A stretch of 64,000 nt of DNA from an uncultured Microthrixaceae bacterium (GTDB lineage Bacteria; Actinomycetota; Acidimicrobiia; Acidimicrobiales; CAVOFX01), in contig CAVOFX010000006.1 of assembly GCA_963695115.1 (NCBI GenBank), positions 584 to 64,583 of the forward strand, read 5' to 3'. The notes beneath the pieces were generated by a model. That model was given only the letters and a program-made list of their open reading frames with translations. It was not told the origin of the DNA and did not search any database. This document shows, piece after piece, positions 1,412 to 1,938 of the stretch; the first letter of the stretch is position 1; the number at the start of each line of letters is the position of its first letter. A program made the position numbers and the translations under genes.

Positions 1412-1938
1412 TTAATTAATATGTTTTTTTTTTTTTTTTTTTTTTTCTCTCTCTCTCTCTCTCTCTCTCTCTCTCTCTCTCTCTCTCTCTCCCTCCCTCC
1501 CTCCCTCCCCGCTCGGCCGGCCGCCCGCCCCGCCCGCCCCGCCCCCCGCCCGGCCGCCCCGCCCGCCCCTCCCCGCCCGTCCTCCCTCCCGCTCCTCCCG
1601 CCGCCGCTCCCTCCCGCCCCGCCCCTCCCTCCCTCCTCCTCCCGCCGCCCTCCTCCCCGCCCCTCCCTCCCTCCTCCCCGCCCCGCCTCCTCCTCGTCCC
1701 CCGCCGCCGCCGCCTCTCTCTCTCTCCCTCCCTCCCTCCCTCCCTCCCTCCTCCCCGCCCCGCCCGTCCCCGCCCGCCCCCCGCTCCCCGCCCGCCGCCC
1801 CGCCCCCGCGCCCGCGCCCCGCCCCTCCCCGCCGCCCCGCCGCCCCGCCCCGCCTCTCTCCTCGTCCGCCGCCGCCGCCTCTCTCTCTCTCTCTCTCTCT
1901 CTCTCTCTCTCTCTCTCTCTCTCTCTCTCTCTCCTTCA
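1412..1938. repeat. A-free polypyrimidine low-complexity block: T23, (CT)22, (CCCT)n, C-rich CCGCCC-type tract, (CT)27
   Basis: Read directly from the sequence: T run 1424-1446, (CT)n 1447-1490, CCCT repeats from 1491, (CT)n 1879-1932. There is no A on the plus strand across the block. It is preceded by an AT-rich junction, aggcttaattaatatg. Confidence 0.95.

Follow-up and report, generated by a model that had tools for sequence, protein, structure and literature searches.

The first 1938 nt of the window, i.e., of the whole 64-kb stretch analyzed here (contig C6:584-64583), are very probably the unpolished overhang of one or a few fold-back long reads at a contig tip, and as such non-genomic sequence (window 1-1938, C6:1-2521). 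This region consists mostly of a noisy inverted copy of a nearby locus (window 1-1407) and of a 527-nt low-complexity block (1412-1938), which we regard as an artefact lying almost certainly outside the bacterium's genome. An artefact was already the preferred explanation in the initial annotation of this DNA, and that preference is now reinforced by the position of the block at a contig end, the raw-read quality of the inverted copy, the graded borders of the block, and the presence of the same kind of junk in unrelated Nanopore MAGs. Conversely, the other option raised there, namely a real rearrangement breakpoint with non-B DNA, finds no support once the complete acyl-CoA dehydrogenase (ACAD) gene on a second contig (C3), the graded borders, and the noisy arm are considered.

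An A-free low-complexity block near a contig start

The plus strand had been described as free of adenine over ~515 nt, and we indeed recovered a 516-nt A-free run at window 1422-1937. The second-longest A-free run across the 64-kb window is 53 nt, and within the entire assembly (3.4 Mb in 10 contigs, 92% complete, with the look of a MAG) the block is the sole A-free or T-free run of at least 120 nt. Base counts for positions 1412-1938 are 331 C, 129 T, 61 G, and 6 A, with five of the A within a ttaattaata junction (1414-1421) and the remaining one at position 1938. The sub-structure originally proposed (T23, (CT)22, (CCCT)n, a C-rich tract, and (CT)27) was also retrieved by a motif scan, with which TRF concurs. 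On the plus strand, T23 (1424-1446) is followed by (CT)22 (1447-1490) and (CCCT)4 (1491-1506), additional (CCCT)n units occur at 1623, 1661, and 1726-1749, the last of these being a (CCCT)6 that comes directly after a (CT)6 (1714-1725), and (CT)27 occupies 1879-1932. The C-rich stretches contain scattered G. On the read's own strand, the block corresponds to (AG)n/(AGGG)n/A23. In contig coordinates it spans C6:1995-2521, 2 kb from the contig start.

The ORF reported across the block (1416-2444) is present on the minus strand, where it encodes 342 aa and fuses an Acyl-CoA_dh_N domain to an (ER)n/RG-rich/poly-K tail; as stated, the ACAD reading frame is cut after ~117 codons (2288-1939), which lie ahead of the block. 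The description of the block as stop-free in five of six frames, by contrast, has to be amended: because plus-strand stops contain A and minus-strand stops start with T, stop codons are impossible in all six frames within the A-free run. Elsewhere in the genome, the only other purine run of at least 30 nt (C5:86973-87002) is located directly upstream of an ORF starting VKFRCERDTLGDALS. This start resembles that of dnaN, and we take the C5 run to be ordinary upstream sequence and not junk.

A noisy inverted copy on one side of the block

On the plus strand, window 1-1407 (C6:5-1990, reaching contig base 5) is the reverse complement of window 3479-5488 (C6:4062-6071) at 90.9% identity. One locus is hence matched on opposite strands by two segments, C6:5-1990 and C6:6071-4062. 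The two arms are separated by 76 substitutions and 70 indel events, with 63 nt missing from the left arm and 39 nt extra in it, and C>T errors are the most frequent kind in this noisy arm. An excess of deletions over insertions combined with transition-rich errors is compatible with ONT sequencing.

We then evaluated which of the two arms carries the errors through a three-way alignment with a short-read contig covering the same locus (L001). In this alignment, 60 variants relative to L001 were common to both arms, and private differences numbered 192 for the left arm vs 9 for the right arm. This combination of shared variants and a lopsided private load indicates that the left arm reproduces this same locus with errors; on the evidence of the alignment, it is best described as a copy of roughly raw-read accuracy or worse, and neither as an old paralogue nor as a decayed duplicate. 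Natural strain divergence between the right arm and L001 amounts to 65 mismatches and 23 gap columns (~6 events by our own count), with the indel figures taken from BLAST counts.

The consensus-quality arm (3479-5488, minus strand) includes an intact 236-aa metalloprotease-like gene (3385-4095), a lipoprotein region, and the 3' part of a relaxase. An identical 236-aa protein is encoded on L001-L004, four short-read contigs obtained independently from other samples, which are 96-97% identical to this arm. The consensus-quality arm is the real copy. These four contigs cover the real arm and stop short of the block, and the inverted arrangement is absent from them. What the initial annotation described as a decayed metalloprotease copy, truncated by the block, would instead be the noisy return arm of a fold-back read, with its 91% identity and asymmetric error load.

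Graded borders and an intact gene on a second contig

Neither border of the block is sharp. On the left, cttaattaatatg (1408-1423, plus strand) represents the metalloprotease sequence (…tcgtatcaatacggtt…) in miscalled form: the letters ggcttaattaatatgtttt can be aligned to the metalloprotease sequence tgcccctcgtatcaatacggttgg, with ~10 of 15 positions matching by our own count on the alignment and mismatches that are mainly C>T. On the right, ccatggccgtgctgcgggg (1939-1956, plus strand) is a miscalled version of the C3 ACAD sequence ccaaggcggcgttgtcgggg, and ~15 of 20 positions match the C3 ACAD gene past the end of the BLAST alignment. Beyond this border, C6:2540-3854 differs from its C3 copy at 16 positions, 9 of which are in the 285 nt nearest the block. 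Gradual fading at both borders would be the mark of a failing base-call and not of an insertion. A PacI linker or oligo-dT primer construct ('ttaattaa' + ATG + T23) was considered as a source of the left border and rejected, as the letters align as degraded metalloprotease sequence.

The segment following the block (window 1957-3271, minus strand), hereafter flank U, carries the 5' part of the ACAD gene (~2288-1939) and an acetoacetate-decarboxylase-family gene, as identified from Acyl-CoA_dh_N and ADC domains. Over 1316 alignment columns, this segment (C6:2540-3854) is 98.8% identical to C3:6886-5573, and the ACAD gene of C3 is complete: its N, M, and C domains are all present, and TetR and PFL-like genes come next. 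A biological truncation of ACAD is thus contradicted by C3, where the gene is uninterrupted and no block occurs at that site. When 30 same-order genomes were searched with the flank, the sole match was an ADC-ACAD stretch at 65% identity in one relative, without any inverted arrangement; the genomes searched were same-order only, with no close relatives among them.

The outermost att repeat (3275-3295, minus strand), a copy of the 3' end of tRNA-Leu(GAG), adjoins the ADC-ACAD flank. A repeat search located a further copy at 10936-10956, and the 3' end of the tRNA-Leu(GAG) gene itself (tRNA call at 27178-27262) constitutes the third. In addition, the short-read contigs L001-L004 part from C6 exactly at window 3274. 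Taken together, the three tRNA-Leu 3'-end copies and the short-read divergence at 3274 lead us to interpret window 3296-27177 as two tandem integrative elements (~3296-10935 and 10957-27177), with ADC-ACAD as the chromosomal flank.

Several other features of this region and of the assembly are worth recording. The C3 contig starts within a related element with RlaP-family and other genes (C3:1-5572, L046), and has its own att repeat (4311-4330) with a Fic/DOC gene (4380-5489) between this repeat and the shared ADC-ACAD flank. The Fic segment is missing from C6, and the C3 arrangement seems to be that of the same hotspot in a variant strain. Within the window, the relaxase/helicase gene (AAA_30, RecD-like SH3; 4997-6731, minus strand) is split over two overlapping ORFs, which would be compatible with low coverage of this strain variant. 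Finally, three pairs of contig-end duplications (C4:524321-529160 and C7:8405-13247; C6:546169-550915 and C7:199382-204133; C3:124290-125495 and C9:179892-181095) display 96-99.5% identity with many gaps, which suggests unresolved strain variants or assembly overlaps.

The same junk at contig ends of Microflora Danica MAGs

We searched for comparable sequences with the scan motif (CT)6(CCCT)4CC in one genome per species, for 185,579 species. This yielded 40 loci, of which 7 belong to 'MFD…bin' soil MAGs from Microflora Danica, 30 to UUID-named 'contig_N' MAGs, and 3 to short-read MAGs. The 7 MFD MAGs carry six taxon labels (Actinomycetota for two of them, then Gammaproteobacteria, delta proteobacterium, Acidobacteriota, Verrucomicrobiae, and Saccharibacteria), and were obtained from Nanopore reads through Guppy sup base-calling, metaFlye assembly, and one Medaka round (PMC12313526). 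In six of these seven MAGs the junk is located at the very end of a contig, and in the seventh (G001) it is 5 kb from the end. At these six terminal loci, which represent five taxon labels, pure (CT)n/(CCCT)n sequence extends over 170-860 nt. Their polarity is uniform: contigs that begin with the junk show its CT-rich strand (L016, L023, L026, L041) and contigs that finish with it show the AG-rich one (L009, L029), i.e., the AG-rich strand points outward in all six terminal cases. Further motifs of the block were matched by T-runs in L030 and by CCCGGCCCC/CGCCGCC stretches in L029 and L041. Overall, the motif set of the block recurs in genomes unrelated to one another, always with the same polarity and either directly at a contig end or close to it.

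The 30 UUID-named MAG loci were not retained as support: they are interior to contigs, the bins are often oversized, and the sequences have the appearance of real microsatellites of eukaryotes. For example, ~80 kb into a 2.2-Mb contig of a 'Candidatus Binatia' MAG (L012, CAXXLF010000002.1), eukaryote-like (AC)n, (AG)n, (AGGG)n, and (GT)n microsatellites are found, and the CBDHHR, CBDBZY, and CBDBCZ records similarly contain eukaryote-like microsatellites inside bacteria-labelled MAG contigs, with several of the bins at 8-16 Mb. These stretches probably represent eukaryotic contamination or chimeric contigs.

No inverted repeat was found around the junk within the 40 8-kb scan tiles, and the one in G001 came to light only on a longer fetched stretch (G001:C6:355150-364441, L030/L045). 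This Saccharibacteria MAG displays a 4-kb fold-back with junk near a contig end, in which a first arm (355150-359158) is followed by a 367-nt A-free block, 924 nt of unique sequence, and an inverted arm running to the contig end. The two arms are 97.2% identical, with 36 gap columns and 77 mismatches. On another contig of the same MAG (G001:C2:1-2400, L055), the unique part is joined to the arm without junk, which indicates that the junk occupies the place of the unique part's return copy. The ratio of junk length to replaced length is 0.40 in G001 and 0.34 here (527/1540). This second G001 contig begins, with the same sequence, 26 nt from the junk border, so that two contigs end at one point.

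A proposed origin in a fold-back long read

We propose the following course of events. Read on the minus strand, the molecule would have passed through the element (C6:6071 to 4062) and then through flank U (4061 to 2540), before turning onto the complementary strand at a fragment end within the ACAD gene. The first ~1.5 kb past the turn would have been compressed by base-calling into a purine-rich junk stretch of 527 nt ((AG)n, (AGGG)n, G-rich, A23), after which calling would have recovered to only ~91% accuracy over the remaining return arm. The post-turn segment does show more errors and missed bases and is shorter than its template, with 527 nt standing for ~1540 nt. On the purine-rich strand, the same order would apply to the block and to G001: a good first pass, the turn, junk replacing the return of the unique part, and the return arm. 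This order predicts which arm should overhang with which accuracy, and the overhang is indeed the return arm here, at 91%, and the first pass in G001, at 97-99%.

The contig would have stopped at a strain-variable hotspot, with tandem elements at tRNA-Leu(GAG); C6 would end 1.3 kb into the flank because the hotspot varies between strains and the common flank was assigned to C3. A Flye-type assembler may extend such a low-coverage tip with a single read, and polishing would not be able to fix the result. We infer that a single read is responsible for the overhang, and the platform was most likely Oxford Nanopore, by analogy with the MAGs described above.

Such reads and such failures are both documented. 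Fold-back artefacts make up ~0.55-0.6% of ONT gDNA reads, some of them with ~2 kb between the two segments (PMC12338684), and they are usually without a detectable adapter (Heinz, Meyerson & Li 2025, Breakinator; PMC12338684). Past the junction of an inverted duplicate, Nanopore reads contain miscalled and missed bases and the second segment is shorter than the first (PMC7229812), for which the mechanism put forward is that re-annealing strands accelerate translocation after the junction (Spealman, Burrell & Gresham 2020, NAR 48:4940; PMC7229812). By analogy with that case, we infer that fast translocation after the turn may have given rise to the junk, including its particular repeat calls. 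Within the literature searched, no paper describes this (AG)n/(AGGG)n basecaller junk, and a search of C6:1-4200 for ONT ligation, ONT rapid, and SMRTbell adapters returned trivial word matches only.

Alternative readings of the block

One alternative, which we consider unlikely, retains a real inversion. Some cells of the population would carry an inverted duplication (a palindromic rearrangement, or a DNA form with hairpin ends) where the tRNA-Leu element array borders the flank, and the block and the errors of the second arm would be the base-calling failure by which this structure shows itself; a bolder version would have the tract itself be real. If such an inversion were real in a minority strain, the inversion would be genuine and the block would still be an artefact. 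An inverted duplication of this kind would fit with the description of the same failure at genuine inverted duplications (Spealman et al., PMC7229812), with the location of the site in a recombination hotspot containing tandem elements and att repeats, and with the two G001 contigs ending at one point, where a genuine DNA end or hairpin might exist. However, ONT fold-back artefacts, at ~0.6% of reads, are common enough to account for a single-read tip, the turn lies in the ACAD gene, which C3 crosses unbroken, and the inverted junction is seen on no other contig and on none of the short-read contigs.

It is also conceivable, although very unlikely, that the read is chimeric, with a compound microsatellite from a soil eukaryote ligated to a bacterial fragment at each end. 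Some MAG contigs do have eukaryote-like parts with real (AG)n(AGGG)n and (AC)n microsatellites (L012), and chimeric reads are known from ONT libraries (PMC12338684). Yet no complex eukaryotic flank is present on either side of the block, where both flanks come from the same bacterial locus, and inverted bacterial parts of one locus are not expected from random ligation. Graded borders and the uniform polarity of the terminal cases (6/6) also argue against a ligated fragment, as does the scaling of block length with the missing return sequence in two MAGs. The G-containing C-rich stretches, for their part, are likewise found in the two GC-richest of the seven MFD loci.

A genuine chromosomal polypurine-polypyrimidine mirror repeat with H-DNA or G-quadruplex potential, marking a breakpoint and truncating two genes, appears highly improbable. 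The tract is part of the deposited assembly and its non-B-DNA potential is obvious, but it is unique in the genome, sits 2 kb from a contig end, and is flanked by a copy of raw-read quality. No inverted arrangement was seen in the short-read contigs or in the same-order relatives searched with the flank, the supposedly truncated ACAD gene is complete on C3, and like junk is found in unrelated phyla only at contig ends of Nanopore MAGs (six terminal, one at 5 kb).

Finally, a PacBio read with a missed SMRTbell adapter, the block being a badly called hairpin adapter, can be set aside as extremely improbable: missed adapters do yield inverted repeats, and the SMRTbell adapter contains CTCTCTC, TTTT, and CCTCCTCC words, but matches to the block are limited to low-complexity words of at most 11 nt with no recognizable 45-nt adapter, the block lacks the adapter's GTTGTTGTT and GAGAGAG parts, it measures 527 nt vs 45 nt for the adapter, the structural twins are Nanopore assemblies, and deletions exceed insertions in the noisy arm, which is unlike CLR reads.

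Consequences for the assembly and for other public MAGs

If the block is an artefact, then the organism has neither a microsatellite nor an H-DNA breakpoint, and it also lacks the ACAD-(ER)n fusion protein and the decayed second copy of the metalloprotease gene. The contig should be trimmed by C6:1-2539 (window 1-1956), and genes called in that part, including the 342-aa fused ORF, should be disregarded. The same artefact is present in other public Nanopore MAGs, and the wider value of this case lies in a recognizable signature for a recurrent defect. Assemblies could be screened for extended low-complexity stretches that lack either A or T and lie no more than a few kb from where a contig ends; neighbouring sequence repeated in inverted orientation after such a stretch could serve as an optional further criterion.

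Comparison with known systems

Eukaryotic (AG)n(AGGG)n microsatellites are built from the same repeat units as the block. They differ in their surroundings, which are complex and AT-richer and include (AC)n and other repeats, whereas a copy of the same bacterial locus lies on either side of the block.

The reads described by Spealman et al. share with the present case two arms on opposite strands, a shortened post-turn stretch (527 nt for ~1540 nt here), low accuracy, and more deletions than insertions. Those reads nonetheless display low-phred, error-rich sequence that is not specifically (AG)n/(AGGG)n or homopolymeric, and come from R9-era chemistry and real inverted duplications (PMC7229812). 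The likeness is drawn here from an assembled contig, for which both the Nanopore platform and the reality of the inversion are putative.

With the fold-back reads of the Breakinator study, the case shares a second segment from the same place on the opposite strand, sometimes after a gap of ~2 kb, and the lack of an adapter at the turn. That study differs in reporting no abnormal signal at the breakpoints inspected, and does not discuss the spread of such reads into assemblies (PMC12338684). Unlike those reads, the artefact analyzed here sits in a deposited contig and includes a junk block.

Further counterparts are found among the MFD loci (L009, L016, L023, L026, L029, L030, L041). Most of these are purely terminal and without a preserved return arm, unlike the block, and they belong to genomes unrelated to this one, with a GC content over the loci read of 0.49-0.60 vs 0.69 here. 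They nevertheless resemble the block in their T-runs, their (CT)n and (CCCT)n repeats, their position, and their polarity.
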